In this document: positions 5,567 to 63,441 of the stretch, piece by piece | How the letters are laid out: each line of letters opens with the position of its first letter | Numbering within the stretch: the first letter of the stretch is position 1 | NCBI RefSeq assembly: GCF_000332155.1 | Contig: NZ_KB235903.1 | Coordinates: 715,156-779,155, forward strand | From: Kamptonema formosum PCC 6407 | GTDB lineage: Bacteria > Cyanobacteriota > Cyanobacteriia > Cyanobacteriales > Microcoleaceae | Length of the DNA stretch: 64,000 nt | Direction of reading: 5' to 3' | Notes under the pieces: generated by a model | Database searches by the model: none | Seen by the model: the letters and a program-made list of their open reading frames with translations, nothing else | What the model was told of the DNA's origin: nothing | Translations under genes and position numbers: made by a program

Positions 5567-5660
5567 TGGCTCTAGTTGATGGGTATGAGGTATAGCAGCC
5601 GCTTCCTAATTGCTAATTTATAAAGCTGTACTTCATTCCATTCACAACTGCTTCTTGCTT

Positions 5661-33407: not shown

Positions 33408-33715
33408 ACTAAATTTAAGCGATGTTAGGCTTGCTAATTCTTTCGATCTCTAGACTTACACACCGAGCGCGAAAACAAATCAGAGATTGTTTGGGGATTA
33501 GTTAATTCCTGGCAATACTTCCGACTGCTTCGCTGCGATGCCTTCGGCCGGCGTAGCCATCGCAACGACGAAAGATGCTAAGCTTGCCTAATTCCAAGCA
33601 CAACTACCAAGACAGTTAGGACGTTCTTAAATTACGGAAATTATTGCTTTGATTGCATATTATTTCTGATTTAAAACTGCTGAATTTTGCAATAAATCTA
33701 AAATCGTTAAATTCA

Positions 33716-35299
33716 ATGATAGAAAATCCTCTTTATCCTAAAGGCAGTAATGCTGTTATTGGAGACGAAAATGCGCCTTTGTCTCCACTTGTAAAAAAAC
33801 TAAATTTAATGATTTTGGCGCGTTACCCACTACTATATATTGTCGCCGCCGAAGAAGAACCCGCCGAAGAAATAATTTCGCAAGTAGCACGAGAGCTAAC
33901 TCCTTCGCGCCGAATTTTATTGTGGGATATTGTGCGCGGCTGGGATGACAATGGCTCTGCTAAAGGCTCAGTAATGGCAGCACTGGATCGAATTAGCAAA
34001 ACTTCGGCTGAGGAATATACAATATTTGTACTGCGCGATTTACATCCTATTTTGAAATATCCCTACACAGAAAAAAATGCTCCCGCAGTTCGGGAGTTGC
34101 GGAATTTGGCACGGGAATTAAAGCGCAGCCGTAAGACGATAATTTTAACTTCTCACGTACTGGAATTACCAGAAGAATTGAAGGAGGAAGTAACAGTAGT
34201 TGACTTTCTTTTACCCAACGTAGAAGAGATTAATTATTTAATTTCTCAGTTTACCGATCGTCCAGAACAGTTAGAGATGAGCGACCTAGCAAAGGAACAG
34301 TTAGTAAAAGCTTGTCAAGGATTAAGTAGAGCTAGAATTAGGCGGGTTTTAGCTAAAGCCTTAGCAGCAAAACAGCAGATAAATGAGTCCGATATAGATG
34401 AGGTATTGGAAGAGAAGCGACAAGCAATTAGGCAGACGGGAATTCTAGAGTTTTTTACGACAAAAGAATCGCTAAAAAGTGTAGGGGGATTAGATAATTT
34501 AAAAGAGTGGATAAAACTGCGACAGGATGCTTTTACTGAGGAGGCTCAGCGCTACGGTATACCTAATCCTAAAGGAGTTTTGCTCGTAGGAATTCAAGGT
34601 AGTGGTAAATCACTTGCTGCTAAAAGTATTGCTCATGAATGGCATTTACCACTGTTACGAATGGATACTGGGAAGCTATTCGGGGGAATTGTAGGGGAAA
34701 GTGAAAGCCGCATTAGGCAAATGATTGAGTTAGCAGAAGCGATCGCGCCTTGTGTTTTGTGGATAGATCAAATTGACCTGGCTTTTGGGAATATTAATAG
34801 CGCTACAGAAAGGGATTCAGGTACGTCGCGGCGGGTATTTAGCAGTTTGATCAATTGGATGCAGGAAAAGACAAGTTCTGTGTTTATTGTGGCAACTGCA
34901 AATAATGTACGAATGTTGCCGATTGAGTTGTTACGAAAGGGTAAATTTGATGAGATTTTCTTTTTAAGTTTGCCCCATGAAATGGAAAGGTTAGAGATTT
35001 TTAAAGTACATTTGCAGCGGTTGCGTGGCGAAAGGTTAGGAGAGTTTGATTTGGCTTTGTTGGCAAGGCGTACTCAGGATTTTAGTGGTGCAGAAATTGA
35101 ACAAGTTGTGATTGACGGGTTATATCGGGCATTCGGGACTTTTGTCAATGGACAGCGTAAAGATTTGACAACGGAGGATATTTTAAGTGCAATTGAGGAT
35201 ACTGTACCATTGGCTGCGTTCGCAGGAGATAGAATTCAAGATTTGAATCAGTGGGCGACTGAAACTGGGGCGAAAATAGCATCTAAGGATAAGTATTAG
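33716..35299 (+). CDS. Ycf46-like AAA+ ATPase
   Basis: Walker A GIQGSGKSLAAK, then LFGGIVGESESRIRQMIELAE. The Walker B region reads CVLWIDQIDLAF. The ATG at 33716 is preferred. Confidence 0.75.
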   Translation: MIENPLYPKGSNAVIGDENAPLSPLVKKLNLMILARYPLLYIVAAEEEPAEEIISQVARELTPSRRILLWDIVRGWDDNGSAKGSVMAALDRISKTSAEEYTIFVLRDLHPILKYPYTEKNAPAVRELRNLARELKRSRKTIILTSHVLELPEELKEEVTVVDFLLPNVEEINYLISQFTDRPEQLEMSDLAKEQLVKACQGLSRARIRRVLAKALAAKQQINESDIDEVLEEKRQAIRQTGILEFFTTKESLKSVGGLDNLKEWIKLRQDAFTEEAQRYGIPNPKGVLLVGIQGSGKSLAAKSIAHEWHLPLLRMDTGKLFGGIVGESESRIRQMIELAEAIAPCVLWIDQIDLAFGNINSATERDSGTSRRVFSSLINWMQEKTSSVFIVATANNVRMLPIELLRKGKFDEIFFLSLPHEMERLEIFKVHLQRLRGERLGEFDLALLARRTQDFSGAEIEQVVIDGLYRAFGTFVNGQRKDLTTEDILSAIEDTVPLAAFAGDRIQDLNQWATETGAKIASKDKY

Positions 35300-35302
35300 A
35301 AA

Positions 35303-35492
35303 GAAGGGGCTAGGGGCTAGGGGCTAGGGACTAGGGAAAGAGGGGGAGATGGGCGAGGGGGGAGATGGGGGAGATGGGGGAGATGGAGAGGATGGGTAAT
35401 TAGCGATTAGCGATTAGCAATTAGCAATTAGCGATTAGCAATTAGCAATTAGCAATTAGCAATTACCAATTAGCAATTAGCAATTACCAATT
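35303..35492. repeat. Composite tandem-repeat block: (GGGGCTA)n, (GGGGGAGAT)n, (AATTAGC/AATTACC)n
   Basis: Three different short-unit arrays abut one another directly downstream of the AAA+ gene. Confidence 0.85.
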
Positions 35493-35501
35493 ACCAATTA
35501 C

Positions 35502-35792
35502 CTATCTACTTCCACCCGCAGACTCATCTTTTGGTGGATTATCTTGTCTCTGGGCGTAAATATTTCCTGATTTTTCAATTAATCTTGAATCTCGTTGCTT
35601 TGATATAATGTCATTACGAGGAACCGATTTAAGAACTGTCGAAGCTTCAGCGACTAAGGGGTGCGCGATGACTACCCTGGCTGAAGGCATCGCAATTGCT
35701 AATGCTGCGGTTCCGGTCAAAAATAGAGAATGCACTCTGGAAAAACTTAGCTTCATCTCCATCACCAAGAGAAAGCGGTCTATGTTTTTCAA
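35502..35792 (-). CDS. Possible small secreted protein (weak)
   Basis: 96-aa ORF with an internal hydrophobic signal-like segment LFLTGTAALAIAMPSA. No recognisable family. Confidence 0.25.
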   Translation of the reverse strand: MKNIDRFLLVMEMKLSFSRVHSLFLTGTAALAIAMPSARVVIAHPLVAEASTVLKSVPRNDIISKQRDSRLIEKSGNIYAQRQDNPPKDESAGGSR

Positions 35793-36217
35793 TATTTCAC
35801 GGCAATCGAGCTCAATGTTTGTCTGTGTAGTTAAAACTCACAAGGTAAGAGGAAAAGATAGCTGCATACACATCTGTGAATCTGCCTACACAAAGACACT
35901 ACTTTTTTACTTAGGGGGCTAGCTTAAGAGTAAATGGCTAATGGCTAATGGCTAATTGGTAATTGGTAATTGGGATACACAGATTTTACAGATTCCTCTG
36001 ATTTCACAGACTAAACGATCGTGACTCTAACTAATCCGTGTAATCCGTGTAATCGGTAAAATCCGCGATCGTAACTGGTAATTGGGAGGAAAGTTAAATG
36101 ATTAATAAGTGAAATTAGTTGCTTTATTGCTGATTTATGGTTGTATTTAACCGTACAAAATTCCCTATAAAACTAAAATATTTAGCAATACACTAGCATT
36201 AACTATAGGAAGCAAAG

Positions 36218-38077
36218 ATGAATCAATTAGAGTTCACGAAAGCATTTACAGCTTTGACACCAAGACAGCAAGAAGTGTTGTTAAAAGTTTTAGCTGGTGA
36301 AAAAGATGCAGATATTGCTGCTTCGTTACATATCACCAAAGAAACTGTGAGAAAACATATTGAAAATATTTGCGAAGCCTTTGGTTTGAGATATCAACAA
36401 GATCATGGCTTATCGCACCGCCCTAATTTAATTGCTCTATTTGCTAAATACAGACCGGAATTATTTAGCCGTTATCCTCAAAATAGCAGAAATAATACTC
36501 AAGTTTTGCTCAGCTACTACCGTAGTTTTGAACTAGATTTAGGTTTAATATCGCAGTTAGATGCGGCATTAAAAGCTAATGGGTGTAGAGTCTTTCAAGC
36601 TGGCAGTAATCTGCGAATGGCAAAAAACGGCCCACAGCAAATTTACGCAGAATTGAATCAAAGTGATTATTTATTGCTACTTTTATCGCCGCTTTCAGCT
36701 TGCAGCGAGATGGTGACAGAAGAGGTAAGGACTGCCAAAACTCTGCAAGGTTCGCGGGAGGGCAAACCTGTAATTATTCCGATTCGGATTAATTGCCCTT
36801 TTAGTTTACTAAACCATGATTTACGTGGCTATCTTCAGGGAATTAATGATTATGAGTGGTTGAAACCTGATGATACAGCAAAAATTGTCACGAGAATATT
36901 AGAAGTGATATTAGGCAGCAAAAGGCAAGAGGAAAAAGTAGTAGATAGCGGCTTAAATTCGTCTACAAATCAAGAGAAAGGAAGAAATTTAGAAACGCCA
37001 ACAGCTTTCCCGATAGTTTATGCTTTGACTCCAAATTACCCACCACAACCAATAGCAGAACCGGAGTTACCGAGAGGACAAGTCGAGTTAGCTTCTGCGT
37101 TTTATGTGGAAAGACAAGGAATTGAAGATCGTTGTTATGAGGCGATCGCGAAACCAGGTGCATTAATCCGCATCAAAGCGCCTCGCCAGATGGGAAAAAC
37201 TTCTCTAATGGCGAGAATTCTTCGCCGCGCCGAGTTGCAAGACTTTGCCGTAGTCCCTTTAAGCTTTCAGTTGGCAGATAGTAAAGTTTTTACCGATTTA
37301 GAACAGTTTTTGCGGTGGTTTTGTGCAAATGCTGCTTTGCAGCTAGATTTGCCGGATCGCTTAGCTGAATATTGGAATGGGATTTTTGGTGCTAAAGTAG
37401 CTTGTAAATCTTATTTTGAAAGATATTTGCTAGCAAATATTACAACTCCTTTAGCTTTAGGTTTAGATGAAGTAGATGTAGTGTTTAGATATCCTGAATT
37501 AGCCGCTGATTTTTTGGGATTGTTGCGTGCGTGGCACGAGGAAGCTAAAAATCGGGATATTTGGAAAAAATTGCGTTTAGTTGTCGTACACTCTACAGAG
37601 GTTTACGTGCCGATGGATGTCAATCAATCGCCATTTAATGTAGGTTTACCGATTGAGTTGCCGGAATTTAAACCGGAACAAGTGAAAGAATTAGCATTGC
37701 GGCATGGGTTGGCTTGGGGTGCAAAAGAAGTTGAGCAATTAATGGCAATGGTGGGAGGACATCCTTATCTGATTAGGTTGGCTTTCTATCACATTTCCCG
37801 ACAGGAAATAACTTTGTCAGAATTGTTAGCAACAGCACCGACTGATGCGGGACTTTATAGCGATCATTTGCGGCGGCATCTGTGGAATTTAGAACAGCAT
37901 CCAGACTTAGCAGCCGCTATAAAAAAGGTGGCAGATAGTGCTAGTCCAGTGCAACTAGAGTCAATGCAAGGTTTTAAGTTGCATAGTATGGGATTAGTGG
38001 AGTTTCAAGGTAATCAAGTAAGGCCCCGCTGCAATTTGTACCGCAATTATTTTAAGGTGCGTTTAGGAAATGAATAA
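36218..38077 (+). CDS. LuxR-type HTH + TIR-like domain + P-loop STAND/AAA-like (AAA_35-type) ATPase
   Basis: HTH: LTPRQQEVLLKVLAGEKDADIAASLHITKETVRKHIENI. TIR-like: VLLSYYRS...YLLLLLSPLSACSEMVTEEV...PVIIPIR. NTPase: FYVERQ...APRQMGKTSLMARIL and LGLDEVDVVF. Confidence 0.7.
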   Translation: MNQLEFTKAFTALTPRQQEVLLKVLAGEKDADIAASLHITKETVRKHIENICEAFGLRYQQDHGLSHRPNLIALFAKYRPELFSRYPQNSRNNTQVLLSYYRSFELDLGLISQLDAALKANGCRVFQAGSNLRMAKNGPQQIYAELNQSDYLLLLLSPLSACSEMVTEEVRTAKTLQGSREGKPVIIPIRINCPFSLLNHDLRGYLQGINDYEWLKPDDTAKIVTRILEVILGSKRQEEKVVDSGLNSSTNQEKGRNLETPTAFPIVYALTPNYPPQPIAEPELPRGQVELASAFYVERQGIEDRCYEAIAKPGALIRIKAPRQMGKTSLMARILRRAELQDFAVVPLSFQLADSKVFTDLEQFLRWFCANAALQLDLPDRLAEYWNGIFGAKVACKSYFERYLLANITTPLALGLDEVDVVFRYPELAADFLGLLRAWHEEAKNRDIWKKLRLVVVHSTEVYVPMDVNQSPFNVGLPIELPEFKPEQVKELALRHGLAWGAKEVEQLMAMVGGHPYLIRLAFYHISRQEITLSELLATAPTDAGLYSDHLRRHLWNLEQHPDLAAAIKKVADSASPVQLESMQGFKLHSMGLVEFQGNQVRPRCNLYRNYFKVRLGNE

Positions 38078-38104
38078 TTAAAAAACTAGAGATAAAAAGT
38101 TGAC

Positions 38105-39277
38105 ATGAGATATGAAGTCAATTTAGAATATACTTATCAAGTTGGGGGCTGCTTGCCGCTAGATGCACCAACTTATATCACTAGAAAAGCCGATATTGAG
38201 TTAATGGAAAGTTTGAAAGCCGGAGAATTTTGTTATGTGTTAAATTCACGCCAAACTGGAAAGTCTTCCTTGCGAGTTAGAACGATGCAAAGGTTGCAAG
38301 CTGAAGGTTTTGCCTGTGCAGCAATTGACTTAACGGCAATTGGCAATCGCAATATTGAAGCTCACCAATGGTATGCTGGTTTAGTTTATAGTTTAGCTAA
38401 TGGTTTTGATATTTTAGATCGGTTTGATGTCAGTCGCTGGTGGTGCGATCGCGAACTACTTTCTCCCGTGCAAAGGTTTAGTCAGTTTCTTGAAGAGGTG
38501 CTGTTAAAAGAGGTTGCTCAAAATTTAGTCATTTTTATTGATGAAATTGATAGCATTCTCAGCTTGAACTTCCTTCCTGACGACTTTTTTGCTGCGATCG
38601 AAGCTTGCTATAATAGACGTGCAGAGGAGGTAAAATACAGGCGACTTACTTTTACAATCTTGGGTGTGGCAAACAAGAGCGATTTGATAATTGACAAACA
38701 TCGGACGGCAATTTTTAGTATTGGTAGAGCTATTCATTTAGAGGGTTTTCAGTTGCAGGAATGCCAGCCTTTAGCCGCTGGGTTAGCTGAGAAATTAGAG
38801 AATGCTGAGAATGCGATCGCAGAGATATTATCTTGGACGGCAGGACAACCATTTCTAACTCAAAAGCTATGCAAACTATTAATACAAAAACTTCTGAATA
38901 ATTGTCAATCCCGAATCCTAAATTCTCCAACTGAAGTTTCTGAGTTGGTAAATTATTTAGCCATTAATCAGATCGTAGAAAACTGGCAAGGACAAGATGA
39001 GCCAGAGCATTTAAAGACAGTGCGCGATCGCGTACTCAGAAAATCAGATCGACCTAGCCACCTGCTAGAATTATATCAGCAAGTTTTGCAAAACAAACAA
39101 ATTGTTGTTGATGATAGTTCTGAGCAATTAGAATTGAGACTTTCAGCATTAGTAGTCAAACGTGAAGGAAAGTTGGAGGTTGCTAACCGGATATACAAAT
39201 CAGTTTTTAACATTAATTGGGTGGAAGAACAATTAGCACTTATGCGCGAGAATGCCCTTCCCATTTTTAATTCTTAA
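38105..39277 (+). CDS. P-loop STAND/AAA-like ATPase (stand-alone paralog)
   Basis: [20 protein letters not shown]...[27 protein letters not shown], Walker [12 protein letters not shown], and [13 protein letters not shown]. This module usually sits at the N-terminus of large cyanobacterial repeat proteins. Confidence 0.7.
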
Positions 39278-39297
39278 TTTTTAATTATTAATTGCTT

Positions 39298-40191
39298 ATG
39301 CCCTATAGCTTGGTTTTAAACTTATTGCCATCTTCGCCAATCCCACCCCAATTTTTGACTGGGCGGCATCTTCATGCTTTGTTCTTAAAATTAGTAAGTG
39401 CAGTAGATACTGATTTAAGTGCTTATTTGCACGATCAAGCTAATGAAAAAGCTTTCACCCTTAGCCCCTTACAAGTATCTAAAAAAGAAGGGCAAAAAAT
39501 TAAGATAATAGGGGAAAATAAGAGAATCGATCCTCTAGGTTCTAGGACTTTACAGTGGGAATACAAACAAGTAATTAGCGGAAATACACCGATTTGGTGG
39601 CGTATTTCTCTTTTAGATGATAGTTTATTCGCCCGCCTGACTCAACTTTGGTTGCACCTAAATTTCGATCGCCCTTGGCATCTCGGCCCCGCAGATTTAC
39701 ACATTACTAGCATCTTAGCAGTACCGCAACCTGCCCAGCCTTGGGTGAATGCGATTTCCTATACACAATTATACGAGCAAGCTTCAGCAGAAGAACGGCA
39801 AATTGCTTTTAGTTTCTGCACTCCGACTAATTTCCGTCAAGGTCAATACGATACACCGATGCCAACTAGAGACACTATTTTTGGTAGCTTGCTAAATCGC
39901 TGGAATAAATATAGCAATATTCCTCTAGATCGTACTATTATCGAGCCTATTTTTCCCAGCTTTTTTGACATTCATACTGAAATGTTAGCTGATTCTCGCA
40001 GTAAATTTATTGGGTGTGTCGGCGAAGTTAGCTATCGAATTATGGGCGATGTTGAGCCGCTAAAGATTAAACAAATTAATGCCTTAGCAGATTTTGCTCT
40101 CTATAGCGGAGTGGGGAGGAAAACACCGATGGGTATGGGAATGGTACGGCGGCTGCAAGAGTTCAGTAATGCTAACGGTTACAGAATGTAA
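39298..40191 (+). CDS. Cas6-like RAMP protein (orphan; no CRISPR array in the window)
   Basis: The C-terminal loop GVGRKTPMGMG fits the Cas6 GhGxxxxxGhG motif. N-terminal GRHLHALFLKL is a candidate His. The size (about 297 aa) fits a double RRM. The start is 20 nt after the upstream gene. Confidence 0.6.
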   Translation: MPYSLVLNLLPSSPIPPQFLTGRHLHALFLKLVSAVDTDLSAYLHDQANEKAFTLSPLQVSKKEGQKIKIIGENKRIDPLGSRTLQWEYKQVISGNTPIWWRISLLDDSLFARLTQLWLHLNFDRPWHLGPADLHITSILAVPQPAQPWVNAISYTQLYEQASAEERQIAFSFCTPTNFRQGQYDTPMPTRDTIFGSLLNRWNKYSNIPLDRTIIEPIFPSFFDIHTEMLADSRSKFIGCVGEVSYRIMGDVEPLKIKQINALADFALYSGVGRKTPMGMGMVRRLQEFSNANGYRM

Positions 40192-40819
40192 GATTACCGC
40201 GACCATCTGGATTTCCATTAGAAATCCACCCTTTCAGCGGGGATTCAATTTCAATCCAGTTAAGATTTTCCACTGTTCTAATGATTACTGGAACGTCTGT
40301 AGGTTTGACTATTTCTCCATTCCTGACTCGCCCTACTAGACGAGACTTAGTGGTAGCATCTGAATGAATTGCTAAACCATCTTGCGCTGAGGAATTGACA
40401 CGGTAACAGGGGTTTTCAGCCAGAGATATTTTCATGGCTATGGCGGTGACAGTAGCTTTAAAACTGCCATTAATCCAACAGCCGTATTCTATCTCTCCTG
40501 AACCTATGGTATTAACATCGCGGCTGACTCTATACCAATAAGTCTCTAATTGTCTTTTCTCTGTATGGGGAGTATCAACCTCTCCAAAGCACTGATTTTG
40601 CAGTTCCATTCCTAACCCTAAATCCATATTAGATAGCCCAAACTCTAATCCTGCATCTTTGAGGTTTTCCCAAGGTTGCCACAAACTCCAACCTCGTTGA
40701 GAGATATTAGTAGGGCCATTTGGATTGTCTGGATTCGCTTTAACAGGTAAGGAGGAAATTATTAAGGTGGCGATAGCTGAAATCGCTAGAGTTGAGGGAA
40801 ATAAATTGGGTAATTTCAT
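40172..40819 (-). CDS. Secreted protein with C-terminal SH3b-like domain
   Basis: Signal peptide ending PVKANP. C-terminal YRVNSSAQDGLAIHSDATTKSRLVGRVRNGEIV...NWIEIESPLKGWI. It overlaps the Cas6-like 3' end by 20 nt (convergent). Confidence 0.55.
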   Translation of the reverse strand: MKLPNLFPSTLAISAIATLIISSLPVKANPDNPNGPTNISQRGWSLWQPWENLKDAGLEFGLSNMDLGLGMELQNQCFGEVDTPHTEKRQLETYWYRVSRDVNTIGSGEIEYGCWINGSFKATVTAIAMKISLAENPCYRVNSSAQDGLAIHSDATTKSRLVGRVRNGEIVKPTDVPVIIRTVENLNWIEIESPLKGWISNGNPDGRGNLTFCNR

Positions 40820-40901: not shown

Positions 40902-41762
40902 TTAGTTAGTTGAGGATGATTGTATCTGTTGTACCTGTAACCAAGCGGCTAAATCTGCTACATTAGAGAAGTCAAGCAGCGCTTCTCCCAAGTTTTCTAA
41001 TTGAGGGATTGCTAATCTTTGAATCTGTTCGCTTAGTTGTGGTTCTAACTCCCCAAAACGCCGTGAAATCTGGCGTTGTAGAATTGCTACTTCTCCTCGC
41101 TGCATACCTTGTTGTACACCTTGTTGTACACCTTGTTGCAGAATATCTTGATAGGTGACTGATTCTCTCATAATATCCTCTCTGAATAATTGACGAATCA
41201 ATTTTTTCTCAAACCGTAGACCAGCTAGGACGAAAACACAAGCTGAGATGTTATTCCGTTGCTCTGTTTCTTCAATGATAGCAACTTGCTGAGCAACTTG
41301 CTCTAATAAAGTATTAGGGTTGTCGCTTTGAGCTAAAGCAGCCAGGGGTAAAAGTTCTGGTGTAACTAAAAGTGGAGCGGGATTTTGTTCCCACATCCGA
41401 ATAATTCGATAGCGGTGTGTCGTATAATTATCTTGATATTGATTCTGCAATACTAATTCTGAATTAGTACGTTTGAGGAAAATAACTACCTGTTCAATAG
41501 GTAAGCGATATTTCCTTGTTAATATAGCTTTATATTCAAGCATCCGCAAGGGAATTGGCGGATTTGAATAGGGTACTGTTTGAAATTCTAGATGCAGAAT
41601 TTGGTTATCAGTTTGTAGCAAAACAAGAGCATCTGCCTCAATCGGTTCGGGTATAATTTCGGTTTTAAGTACCCGGATATTTTCCGGTTCTGTATTTAGT
41701 AGCCAGCGGACAAATGAGGCTGGAGATTTTTCGGCGAGATATTTACAAGTGTTGTCGTACAT
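40902..41762 (-). CDS. Rpn/YhgA-like PD-(D/E)xK recombination-promoting nuclease / putative transposase (DUF4351 C-terminus)
   Basis: MYDNTCKYLAE..P..FVRWLL, ADALVLLQTDNQILHLEFQT, and a C-terminal QGVQQGVQQGMQRGE + RRFGEL tail. Confidence 0.7.
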   Translation of the reverse strand: MYDNTCKYLAEKSPASFVRWLLNTEPENIRVLKTEIIPEPIEADALVLLQTDNQILHLEFQTVPYSNPPIPLRMLEYKAILTRKYRLPIEQVVIFLKRTNSELVLQNQYQDNYTTHRYRIIRMWEQNPAPLLVTPELLPLAALAQSDNPNTLLEQVAQQVAIIEETEQRNNISACVFVLAGLRFEKKLIRQLFREDIMRESVTYQDILQQGVQQGVQQGMQRGEVAILQRQISRRFGELEPQLSEQIQRLAIPQLENLGEALLDFSNVADLAAWLQVQQIQSSSTN

Positions 41763-41861
41763 GACTCTACAATCGATTTTTACACAACTCAATTCCAAAG
41801 ATTAGGTTAGTTGTTATCTCTACTGATAACTCCGCTGGCTTTTTGATACTAGAGCAACTTT

Positions 41862-42188
41862 TTACTCTTCTTTTGGCTTAATTTCGCTGACAATTTCATA
41901 AATATCAGTATCAGGAACTTTAGCAAATAAATGATTCATCTGCTTCAATATTTCCTGGTAAGCTTCGCTTTGATTAGATGCCATATCTTCTACGCTATCC
42001 CAGAAAATTATGGCAAGTCCTTTGTCTGTCTCCGGCAATTGTAGTAGGTATGCTCCCTTAAAACCATGAGCATAGGTTGATACAGCCTTTTGATAAAGTT
42101 GCTTGGCTTCTTCAAACTTACCGGGTTTAAATTCTCCGATGGCGACGTAGGCAAATTGATGCCGCAGAAAATCTAGAAATTCTGACAT
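41862..42188 (-). CDS. Small ABM/Dabb-like (alpha+beta barrel) hypothetical protein
   Basis: About 108 aa: AYVAIGEFKPGKFEEAKQLY...AIIFWDSVEDMASNQ. Assignment by general resemblance only. Confidence 0.4.
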   Translation of the reverse strand: MSEFLDFLRHQFAYVAIGEFKPGKFEEAKQLYQKAVSTYAHGFKGAYLLQLPETDKGLAIIFWDSVEDMASNQSEAYQEILKQMNHLFAKVPDTDIYEIVSEIKPKEE

Positions 42189-42536
42189 TAGTTTTACTTT
42201 GGGTAAAGGTTGATACACAAAATAGAATTTTACCCTATAACTGTAATTTTAGTAAATGCGGCTGTAAGTATTTATTTAAAAAGAAAAATTATATTGTGAG
42301 ATGGGCAAGACTCCTGTCTGTCCTGATTTAGAGGTCGGTGGGAGGCTAATTTGTCTATACTGGATCGAGATTGAACAAAGTATGCTAGTATTAGCGCCAA
42401 CTGTTGAAGCATTAAGGCTAGACAATAGCATAAGTCAGGAATTAGGATTCATAATTGATATATTATCCTGAATAGCTCAGGATTCAGAATTAAAACTCTA
42501 ACTCCTAAATTATTTTTGAAACTACCAATAATCAAT

Positions 42537-61302: not shown

Positions 61303-62490
61303 ATGTATTTGAGAAGTATCCACCTCCGACAGTTTCGCAACTACCGAGATCAGAAGGTAATATTTGATGCTCCTAAAACAATTTTGGTTGGCAATAATGC
61401 TCAAGGAAAATCTAATTTATTAGAAGCAGTAGAGTTGCTTTCAACTCTCAAAAGCCATAGAGCAACACGCGATCGCGATTTAATCCTTGACGCTAAACCC
61501 ATAGGGCAAATTGATGCTAGCTTAGAACGGCAAACTGGGATAATTGATTTAACTTTAACCCTTCGCAATCAGGGAAGGCGCACTGTTGGACTCAACGGCG
61601 AACCTCTGCGTCGGCATTTAGACTTTTTGAGCGTACTCAATACAGTACAGTTTTCGAGTTTAGACTTAGATTTAGTGCGAGGTAGCCCAGAACATCGGCG
61701 GGACTGGATCGATCGCTTAGTCACGCAATTAGAACCTGTCTATGCTCACATTTTACAGCAATATAACCAAATTCTGCGGCAGCGAAATGCTTTTTTGAGG
61801 CGAGAGAAAGAGCAAGCGAACAAAGGAGAATTACCAACCACCAATTACCAATCACCAATTACTAATTACCAATCACCAATTACCAATTCCGAATTAGCTT
61901 TATGGGATGCACAATTAGCAACTGCGGGAGCTCGTGTTATCCGCAGACGCGATCGCGTTTTAGAGCGGTTAATCCCTTTAGCTCAAAGTTGGCATCGCTC
62001 AATTAGTGGTAGTATGGAGGTTTTAGATGTTAAGTACATACCTAATGTAGAAGTAATCCAAGAATTAATTGCTCGCGATCGTCTTGAAGGAGTACGTCAA
62101 GCTTTTTTAGATAAAATTAGGGAAAGAGCGATCGCCGAATATTACCAAGGTACTACCTTAGTCGGCCCTCACCGAGATGATATTTCTTTTACTATTAATA
62201 ATACTCCTGCTCGTCAATACGGTTCCCAAGGTCAGCAGCGCACTCTAGTATTAGCATTAAAATTAGCCGAATTACAACTCATTGAAGAAGTTGTTGGCGA
62301 ACCTCCCCTATTATTGCTTGACGATGTACTTGCAGAACTAGATCTCAATCGCCAAAATCAACTTTTAGAGACTATTCAAGAGCGATTTCAAACTCTAATT
62401 ACTACTACCCATTTAGGTGCTTTTGATGCCCAGTGGTTGCAGCAAACCCAAATTTTATCAGTCCAAGCTGGACAAATCACTCAAATTTAA
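61303..62490 (+). CDS. recF: DNA replication and repair protein RecF
   Basis: Walker [14 protein letters not shown], signature [16 protein letters not shown], Walker [13 protein letters not shown]. Confidence 0.9.
61831..61890 (+). repeat. CCAATTA-type heptamer repeat inside the recF reading frame
   Basis: ttaccaaccaccaattaccaatcaccaattactaattaccaatcaccaattaccaattcc encodes [20 protein letters not shown]. Confidence 0.85.
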
Positions 62491-62728: not shown

Positions 62729-63042
62729 GAGTCACGACACCGGCGAATGCGAAGCTAGTTTTCCGCTCTGTCATCTGCAATTAAACAGTTTTAAAGTCAC
62801 TGAAACAGTGTTGCAGGTTTAACAAGCTCTTAAAACATTGGCGAAGCTAACATCACCCCGCAAGGGAGGCTCGAAAGAGCAAAACATTATGCGTACAGGA
62901 TTGCGAGGTTTGAGATGGTAATTGTCCCATCGAAAGTACATTACAAAAGTACACCAAGCTAAACAATCCCAAGGCGGTAATGGACAAAAAAGATTCACGG
63001 TGGTTAAAACCACCGTGTCGTTTCCCACATACCGAGTTTTTT

Positions 63043-63441
63043 ATGAAGCACTATGTTTCCCGCCTGCTAGCCTTGGTTTTGGTGGTTGTCATCGGCTTAA
63101 TCGGCTGTTCCAATGTCCCGTCCACTCTGACTGGAGATTATCGCCAAGACACATTAGGATTAGTCAACAGTTTGAGAACAGCGATCGCCTTACCAGACAA
63201 TTCCCCAGATAAGGCCCCCGCTCAAGCAGATGCGCGTCAAAAAATCAATGATTTTGCCGCTACTTACCGCCGGGATGGAACGCTGACCAAGCTTACATCC
63301 TTTACAACAATGCGAACAGCATTGAATTCTTTAGCTGGACATTACAGTTCCTATCCCAACCGTCCTCTGCCGGACAAATTGAAGAAGCGCCTAGAATCCG
63401 AATTTCAGCAGGTAGAAGCTGCATTGAAGCGAGGAGCTTGA
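63043..63441 (+). CDS. psb27: Photosystem II assembly lipoprotein Psb27
   Basis: Lipobox LIGCSN, then TGDYRQDTL..V..LR and ALNSLAGHYSSYPNRPLPDKLKKRL. Confidence 0.85.
   Translation: MKHYVSRLLALVLVVVIGLIGCSNVPSTLTGDYRQDTLGLVNSLRTAIALPDNSPDKAPAQADARQKINDFAATYRRDGTLTKLTSFTTMRTALNSLAGHYSSYPNRPLPDKLKKRLESEFQQVEAALKRGA

Follow-up and report, generated by a model that had tools for sequence, protein, structure and literature searches.

We examined a 64-kb stretch of the genome of the cyanobacterium Kamptonema formosum PCC 6407 (hereafter the window), in which three consecutive genes encode a TIR-containing NTPase, a second NTPase and a Cas6 protein. The open reading frames (ORFs) lie at 36218-38077 (gene 1), 38105-39277 (gene 2) and 39292/39298-40191 (gene 3 or cas6), all on the plus strand. 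Genes 1 and 2 are separated by 27 nt and gene 2 and cas6 by 14-20 nt, depending on the start codon assigned to cas6, and no terminator-like site was found between the three ORFs. Co-transcription of the three genes in Kamptonema is plausible. An earlier note on this DNA had taken them for a candidate defence operon linking a TIR-like module and two STAND ATPases to an orphan Cas6.

Gene 1 (619 amino acids, aa) carries, according to the Pfam profiles, a LuxR/GerE helix-turn-helix (HTH) domain (aa 12-56, nt 36251-36385, E=2.5e-9), a TIR_2 domain (aa 97-196, nt 36506-36805, 44.5 bits for a cut-off of 28) and an AAA_35 NTPase module (aa 285-613, nt 37070-38056, E=1e-152). The AlphaFold2 model of the protein has a predicted local distance difference test (pLDDT) score of 79.9, and the linker at aa 236-295, which is modelled with low confidence, is probably disordered. 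The best match of this model in Foldseek is the plant TIR-NLR (nucleotide-binding leucine-rich repeat receptor) RPP1 (E=2.5e-10). The NTPase motifs are G326-K327-T328 (Walker A), D417-E418 (Walker B) and the GxP-like G513-G514-H-P516. In the TIR domain we noted the motif S163-E164-M-V-T-E168-E169 (Glu169 codon at 36722-36724), of which S163-E164 and E168-E169 are invariant across 94 gene 1 homologues. A search of the gene 1 sequence against the PDB matched the HTH only, and TIR structures were reached with a profile of the TIR region. The resulting alignment places E169 opposite the second Glu of 'STWCLEEL' in ROQ1 and the Glu of 'DWCWDEL' in Cat1, which we take to be catalytic residues of these TIR domains. 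Gene 1 has a Glu at the catalytic position of the SxWCxxE-type motif of the aligned plant and CRISPR-associated TIRs. The ratio of nonsynonymous to synonymous substitution rates (dN/dS) of gene 1 is 0.11-0.15.

Gene 2 (390 aa, dN/dS 0.17-0.21) consists of an AAA_35 NTPase only (E=1.8e-26; aa 15-368, nt 38147-39208), with G52-K53-S as Walker A, D146-E147 as Walker B and G247-Q-P249 as GxP motif, and it shares 20% identity with the AAA_35 module of gene 1. In the alignments of gene 1 and gene 2 homologues, the Walker A, Walker B and GxP motifs of both NTPases are invariant. The solved structures closest to the gene 2 fold are the archaeal PF01637-type ATPases PABY2304 and SSO1545, followed by NB-ARC, CED-4, Cdc6/ORC, Avs5, MalT, Avs3 and Avs4. 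The features that define STAND NTPases, that is Walker A/B and GxP motifs in a nucleotide-binding, helical and winged-helix module, are present in the pair.

Gene 3 starts at an ATG (39298, 297 aa) or at an upstream TTG (39292, 299 aa) and is assigned to Cas6 by Pfam, NCBIfam and PADLOC. It matches CRISPR_Cas6_N (nt 39298-39777, 2e-69, 232.8 bits), CRISPR_Cas6 (nt 39811-40146, 5e-22, 79 bits), cas_cas6 of NCBIfam (TIGR01877, 79.8 bits for a cut-off of 58.65) and, over its full length, Cas6d of PADLOC (E=3e-138); its glycine-rich loop spans G271-G281 (nt 40108-40140). The exact look-up of the TTG-start protein gave no match, and the ATG-start protein matched Kamptonema animale CS-326 and a 6.76-Mb JGI contig. 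The closest Cas6 is that of K. animale CS-326 (99% identity), the same locus being also present on the 6.76-Mb JGI contig.

The gene-level claims of the earlier note are borne out by these results. The three genes are indeed co-directional and closely spaced, the LuxR-type HTH, TIR-like module and P-loop NTPase that it saw in gene 1 correspond to GerE, TIR_2 and AAA_35, its P-loop NTPase call for gene 2 is confirmed, and gene 3 is a Cas6 with a glycine-rich loop scoring above the thresholds of all three resources. AlphaFold and Foldseek, which it had proposed to run, returned a TIR-NLR as top match for gene 1. Together with the NB-ARC, CED-4 and Avs folds recovered with gene 2 and the invariant Glu at the TIR catalytic position, this supports the conflict-system flavour that it had ascribed to genes 1 and 2.

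Distribution of cas6 and of the gene pair

To place the locus among its relatives we used a Cas6 alignment to search one genome of each species, retained the best 80 loci with their 10-kb flanks and clustered the flanking ORFs. Three classes of context were found. The order gene 1-gene 2-cas6 occurs in 3 of the 80 loci, all from Kamptonema (the window, UHCC 0994 and one metagenome-assembled genome, MAG). In the solitary class, which comprises 36 loci plus two with an unclustered ABM neighbour, from Microcoleus, Tychonema and relatives (Cas6 identity 70-74%), the order is NUDIX-peptidase M1-DeoC-cas6-ABM-like (convergent, 108 aa)-response regulator-DUF2103-HEAT-phycobilisome linker/phycocyanin (cpc) genes. 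Neither cas nor AAA_35 genes were found within 10 kb of these ~38 cas6 genes. The third class (33 of the 80 loci, 63-70% identity) consists of type I-D cassettes of Nostoc, Coleofasciculaceae and others, with the NCBIfam-verified order Cas3'-Cas10d-Csc2-Csc1-Cas6-Cas4-Cas1d-Cas2 followed by a CRISPR array.

In a neighbour-joining tree the solitary Cas6 proteins, including those of Kamptonema, form a single clade, sister to the cassette Cas6 proteins. This clade spans ~41 species-level genomes (Kamptonema, Microcoleus and Tychonema) at one syntenic chromosomal position. Microcoleus protein P0088, considered as a possible second and cassette-borne Cas6, turned out to be another solitary copy. 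In both clades 81 positions are at least 97% conserved, including H24, H26, H45, K51 and G271-G281. The solitary clade is marked by 13 diagnostic substitutions and by an internal insert of 25-42 aa (vs 12-21 aa in cassette Cas6). The Kamptonema Cas6 has no lineage-specific change at conserved positions, its identity to cassette Cas6 is 67% (vs 61% for the Microcoleus solitary copies) and the dN/dS of cas6 is 0.08-0.17. On the basis of these sequence features gene 3 is a vertically inherited solitary type I-D Cas6, predicted to be catalytically intact. Outside the Microcoleaceae clade, Cas6d proteins with no recognisable cas neighbours in the available flanks were also seen in Scytonema HK-05 and PCC 10023 (L065/L066), Iningainema (L087), Caldora (L068) and locus L055, and solitary I-D Cas6 may have more than one origin.

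Six independent lineages of cyanobacteria have the gene 1-gene 2 pair, and all five outside Kamptonema have it without Cas6. In the Oscillatoriales genome USR001 and on a JGI contig, a gene 2 homologue (70-75% identity) directly follows a GerE-TIR_2-AAA_35 gene, and their left flank is that of the window (a 270-aa ORF, a Band_7 gene and a small divergent 96-aa ORF). Downstream of the pair lie unrelated genes and not cas6, and the partner is of the short form (390-401 aa) with no third gene. In Planktothrix and Roseofilum the partner has 825-860 aa and carries Sll1247_N/C domains; gene 2 shares 55% identity with residues 1-373 of the Planktothrix protein. On an ENA contig a 457-aa AAA_35 partner is followed by a separate gene with Sll1247_N/C domains and pentapeptide repeats. 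Gene 2 corresponds to a short form of a partner gene that elsewhere bears C-terminal Sll1247_N/C domains; outside Kamptonema, Sll1247-type domains usually occur in the partner or directly after it. In all, the GerE-TIR_2-AAA_35 architecture is represented by at least 80 protein clusters (59-97% identity), and sister architectures built on the TIR-AAA_35 core have the HTH swapped for a trypsin-like protease or a cyclase added. Genes 1 and 2 most likely form, judging from these comparisons, a two-gene NLR-like TIR module, uncharacterised and widespread in filamentous cyanobacteria.

The gene 1 homologue of Coleofasciculus has no partner downstream. Divergently upstream of it (L220, 1-5634) are genes for a CHAT protease, a 348-aa AAA_35 protein and an AAA_35/NACHT protein of more than 985 aa, which suggests a larger conflict-gene neighbourhood.

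CRISPR context of the solitary Cas6

No CRISPR array was detected in the 64-kb window with Tandem Repeats Finder (TRF) and a spaced-repeat search, the I-D repeat core had no match in it at up to 3 mismatches, and tblastn of the window with I-D Cas3', Cas10d, Csc2, Csc1, Cas4, Cas1 and Cas2 gave no match. Within the window Cas6 is thus an orphan, as the earlier note had it. A cas operon with an adjacent array accompanies Cas6 neither here nor at the ~38 orthologous loci. The I-D repeats of 24 arrays located next to cassette Cas6 genes share an invariant 3' end of 22 nt, AATCCCTATYAGGGATTGAAAC, and this motif is absent from the window and from ~1 Mb of flanking sequence taken together from ~57 solitary-class loci. 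When these flanks were searched for I-D repeat-like hairpins with up to 5 mismatches, a single match was obtained, at chance level. A metagenome scan with the I-D repeat core ATCCCTATYAGGGATTGAAAC as query gave at least 120 stretches among the matches listed; when 120 of these listed loci were searched by tblastn with Cas proteins and with genes 1 and 2, ordinary I-D cassettes were recovered, none of them linked to AAA_35.

Relatives of Kamptonema are known to own CRISPR systems. Microcoleus asticus IPMA8, which carries a solitary cas6 (L042), was reported to have 6 CRISPR arrays (PMC7251104), I-D loci accompanied by arrays occur in Tychonema species (PMC9958718) and CRISPR-Cas is present in more than 80% of Oscillatoriales genomes (PMC11903412). 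The Cas6 enzymes of the I-D and III-D systems of Anabaena work in trans, processing orphan arrays that lie dispersed (bioRxiv 10.1101/2020.04.14.041012). By analogy, the solitary Cas6 most plausibly matures type I-D-like CRISPR RNAs (crRNAs) in trans from arrays located elsewhere in the genome.

Several features of the collected loci were recorded on the way. Many Nostoc I-D cassettes (L060, L071-L093) have a conserved gene for a 206-aa 2-oxoglutarate (2OG)-Fe(II) oxygenase-like protein directly upstream of cas6, and have in addition, between cas3' and cas10d, a gene for a YhcG/DUF1016 PD-(D/E)xK nuclease (for example L090, 9339-9962 and 2926-3954). Several I-D cassettes are preceded, upstream of their cas3' end, by one or two isolated I-D repeats on the minus strand, opposite to the main array (L054 2466-2562, L060 1970-1990, L063 1822-1913, L078 1664-1754, L080 3137-3266 and others). 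A 34-nt unit other than the I-D repeat occurs five times, with a 65-nt period, ~9 kb upstream of the solitary cas6 of Microcoleus sp. D2_18a_B4 (L039, 892-1189).

Origin of the Kamptonema arrangement and competing explanations

The earlier note read the three genes as one system, proposed to follow their co-occurrence across cyanobacterial genomes and named a lack of co-conservation as evidence against its reading. The trio is confined to Kamptonema, Cas6 stands alone in ~38 genomes and the pair stands alone in five lineages; the three-gene claim is therefore unsupported, because the trio is not co-conserved in other genomes. The right flank of the window cas6 is collinear with Microcoleus vaginatus over ~20 kb and the left flank is not, which places cas6 at a synteny breakpoint; the left flank of the window is syntenic with USR001. 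The gene 2/cas6 junction (39263-39298) is made of AT-rich heptamer repeats of the TTAATTC/T type (TRF). Comparison of the window with L001, L014, L015 and L096 showed that this junction of 14-27 nt consists of heptamer repeats whose unit varies among Kamptonema genomes, the Kamptonema MAG L015 having (CTAACAA)n there instead. From the sequence, the most likely reading is that a left block (Band_7 ... gene 1-gene 2) was joined to a right block (cas6-SH3-ABM ...). We consider it probable that two independent units, an NLR-like pair and a Cas6 working in trans, came to lie side by side in the genus Kamptonema and make up a composite locus, and a functional link between Cas6 and the TIR protein appears largely refuted by these comparisons.

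Several observations weigh against this composite origin or leave parts of it less secure. The gaps are tight, no terminator is detectable and Kamptonema genomes with a synonymous divergence (dS) of 0.5-1.0 share the same arrangement, so that co-expression and some functional coupling in Kamptonema are possible. Neither gene 1 nor gene 2 of Kamptonema has an obvious sensor domain, and no experimental study of any AAA_35 protein was found in the searchable literature. The 6.76-Mb Kamptonema contig is not among the at least 120 stretches listed with ATCCCTATYAGGGATTGAAAC, and an I-D-type array or cassette elsewhere in the Kamptonema genome is hypothetical. A search of the literature on Sll1247 and on solitary or orphan cas6 returned nothing relevant.

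The tight spacing would also suit a true three-gene system in Kamptonema, in which a captured Cas6 serves as RNA-binding sensor or RNA-processing arm in the slot of Sll1247. All three genes are under purifying selection, their order is constant in all Kamptonema-type loci (the window, L001/L002, L014, L015 and L096) and in L218, L221 and L223 the Sll1247_N/C domains take the position after the AAA_35 partner. We nevertheless regard such a system as unlikely: the adjacency is limited to one genus, the short partner does without a third gene in USR001 and on the JGI contig, Cas6 is ancestral at a site that lacks the pair, the Kamptonema Cas6 is unchanged at conserved positions and nearer to cassette Cas6 than the Microcoleus solitary copies are, and no I-D repeat-like RNA substrate occurs in the window. 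A more elaborate version, in which Cas6 was recruited as third component in place of the Sll1247-type sensor and an RNA recognised or cut by Cas6 licenses NAD+ depletion by the TIR (an RNA-triggered NLR-like abortive infection), seems very unlikely. Another explanation concerns the solitary clade as a whole, which could be an exapted host enzyme cutting cellular or mobile-element RNA outside CRISPR. Its fixed syntenic site near housekeeping genes (the cpc operon region) in ~41 species-level genomes, the 13 clade-discriminating residues and longer insert, the strong purifying selection and the failure to find the I-D repeat in ~1 Mb of flanks from ~57 solitary-class loci all speak for exaptation. 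We still judge it rather unlikely, since all residues conserved in cassette Cas6 are kept, CRISPR arrays or I-D loci are found in relatives (PMC7251104, PMC9958718), the Cas6 enzymes of Anabaena are established to act in trans on dispersed arrays (bioRxiv 10.1101/2020.04.14.041012) and no candidate non-CRISPR substrate was found.

The accessory island proposed in the earlier note, that is a horizontally acquired defence island bordered by repeat blocks, fared less well than its gene calls. Heptamer tandem-repeat blocks do exist upstream of gene 1 (35305-35500 and 35930-35973, TRF), but they are not island borders, because similar heptamer arrays are scattered through the window at 12 or more further sites (for example at 5.6, 7.0, 25.1, 29.2, 52.0, 53.8 and 61.8 kb). 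The locus is slightly more AT-rich, as the note had noticed by eye, with a GC content of 0.400 vs a window mean of 0.428 (~1 standard deviation below), but this is not distinctive, because 17% of the 4-kb windows have a GC content equal to or lower than that of the locus. An Rpn-family gene nearby and an upstream AAA ATPase with sub-threshold similarity to IetA would fit an island; both flanks, however, are syntenic with other genera, and neither an integrase nor a tRNA was found at the locus borders. In short, distinct composition, border-specific repeats, an integrase or tRNA and a loss of synteny, by which genomic islands are recognised, are all lacking here, and we hold the island to be highly improbable. 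Least credible of all is that Cas6 is the decaying remnant of a lost I-D cassette. There are no neighbouring cas genes and no array, which would fit a remnant, but the ORF is full-length in ~41 species and the 81 conserved residues are kept. The selection analysis (dN/dS 0.08-0.17) led us to reject a pseudogene.

Returning to a composite locus, the two units would work independently of each other. By analogy with TIR-NLRs and Avs, a trigger would be sensed by the pair via the partner (the gene 2 side), and nucleotide-dependent oligomerisation of AAA_35 would cluster the TIR domains, whose Glu169 site would cleave NAD+ or make a nucleotide signal, leading to growth arrest or death. The NADase activity and the AAA_35 oligomerisation of the pair are thus putative, and the HTH of gene 1 might act in DNA tethering or autoregulation. 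The Cas6 would have departed from the cas cassette before Kamptonema, Microcoleus and Tychonema split and have been passed on vertically thereafter, solitary and at a fixed chromosomal site. It would cut, in trans, pre-crRNAs with repeats ending in the I-D hairpin and handle (...ATCCCTATYAGGGAT/TGAAAC), and the resulting crRNAs would bear the 8-nt 5' handle ATTGAAAC.

Neighbouring features and relation to known systems

The upstream intergenic region (35305-35973) contains the heptamer blocks and, at 35502-35792 on the minus strand, a short divergent ORF of 96 aa, which is found at the equivalent position beside the pair in USR001 (L094) and on the JGI contig (L095) with 44-54% identity. This ORF may belong to the gene-pair module or to its regulation. 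Intergenic heptamer units across the window include AATTAGC, CAATTCC and AGGGGCT, for example at 5659, 6971, 25066, 29251, 35305-35500, 52051, 53853 and 61829. Further upstream, at 33653-35299 on the plus strand, lies the gene of a CDC48/FtsH-like AAA+ ATPase whose similarity to IetA/IteA is below threshold (PADLOC IetA 3.8e-27; NCBIfam IteA 85 bits vs a cut-off of 510). No IetS-like protease gene was found beside it, and the ATPase is present in Kamptonema and absent from the USR001 locus.

Downstream of cas6 three genes follow on the minus strand: a lineage-specific SH3_3-like gene (40172-40819) with a 20-nt overlap between its 3' end and cas6 (40172-40191), a lineage-specific Rpn/DUF4351 gene (40902-41798) that is missing from Kamptonema UHCC 0994, and an ABM-like gene convergent with cas6 (41862-42218; Pfam ABM, 108-118 aa, flank-ORF cluster c1). 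The ABM-like gene is the conserved right neighbour of solitary cas6 in 51 loci, and the window protein is 84% identical to its Microcoleus vaginatus orthologue; it is genomic context and not a proven partner of cas6. In Microcoleus the stop codons of solitary cas6 and of the convergent ABM-like gene abut with zero gap (L022 10882/10883 and other Microcoleus loci), the Kamptonema counterpart being the overlap with the SH3-like gene. Convergent transcription could affect cas6 expression. Near the right end of the window we identified a HEARO RNA (Rfam RF02033, 62642-62856, plus strand, 152 bits, E=4.5e-32) just downstream of the gene of a 395-aa ATPase (61303-62490) and followed by a 153-aa ORF (62980-63441). 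The PADLOC model mad3 matches this ATPase (E=4.5e-32), as do the N-terminal parts of AriA, GajA and PtuA.

We then compared the locus with described systems. Gene 3 belongs to the same Pfam, NCBIfam and PADLOC families as type I-D Cas6 (Cas6d, for example Anabaena Alr1566 and Synechocystis Cas6-1), is 63-70% identical to the cassette Cas6 of Nostoc and Coleofasciculaceae and keeps the conserved His/Lys residues and the G-rich loop. It differs in lying outside a cas cassette, with no array within 64 kb, and in belonging to a monophyletic solitary clade at a fixed site, with 13 diagnostic substitutions and a longer internal insert.

The pair recalls TIR-NLRs and Avs. Gene 1 has an N-terminal TIR with a Glu at the catalytic position and, C-terminal to it, an NTPase with Walker A/B and GxP motifs and a winged-helix region, its model best matches RPP1, and the gene 2 fold matches NB-ARC, CED-4, MalT and Avs3/4/5. 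In contrast to those proteins, the NTPase here is of the cyanobacterial AAA_35 family, gene 1 has an additional N-terminal LuxR HTH, the AAA_35 module is the last domain of both proteins, with no C-terminal TPR, LRR or WD40 sensor on either, and the unit is a pair of divergent NTPases (20% identity). The PADLOC models of Avs and bNACHT gave no significant match with the pair. Among models of described defence systems in PADLOC only weak partial matches were obtained, to CARF3 (HTH part, 2e-8), SAVED_TIR (1e-4) and PDC-S27 (3e-5).

With the TIR effectors of type III CRISPR (Cat1, TIR-SAVED) the locus shares a TIR NADase-type domain adjoining a cas gene, and among PDB sequences Cat1 gives the best match with the gene 1 TIR profile (E=4e-4). 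Unlike them, it contains neither a CARF or SAVED sensor nor type III genes, the CARF3 and SAVED_TIR matches cover the HTH or TIR part only, and the adjoining cas gene encodes a I-D Cas6 and not a cyclase-containing effector complex. The apoptosis-like NTPase conflict systems of cyanobacteria (Kaur, Burroughs, Iyer & Aravind 2020, PMC7159879) resemble the pair in their enrichment in multicellular cyanobacteria, in the swappable N-terminal effectors (here HTH, trypsin-like protease and cyclase on the TIR-AAA_35 core) and in the CHAT and NACHT neighbour genes seen in Coleofasciculus. That paper, however, names neither AAA_35 nor Cas6, and AAA_35 may or may not be one of its 'nSTAND' families.

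A system uniting Cas6, TIR and STAND NTPases would have represented a novel class of defence, and the comparative evidence argues against it. What the locus does reveal is an HTH-TIR-AAA_35 and AAA_35(-Sll1247) pair that is widespread, with at least 80 protein clusters and no strong PADLOC match, and whose paired-NTPase layout recalls sensor/helper NLR pairs. The lone and apparently intact I-D Cas6, maintained across a whole cyanobacterial family at a fixed site of the core genome, raises the question of whether crRNA maturation has been centralised in trans in these cyanobacteria or whether the enzyme has been exapted.

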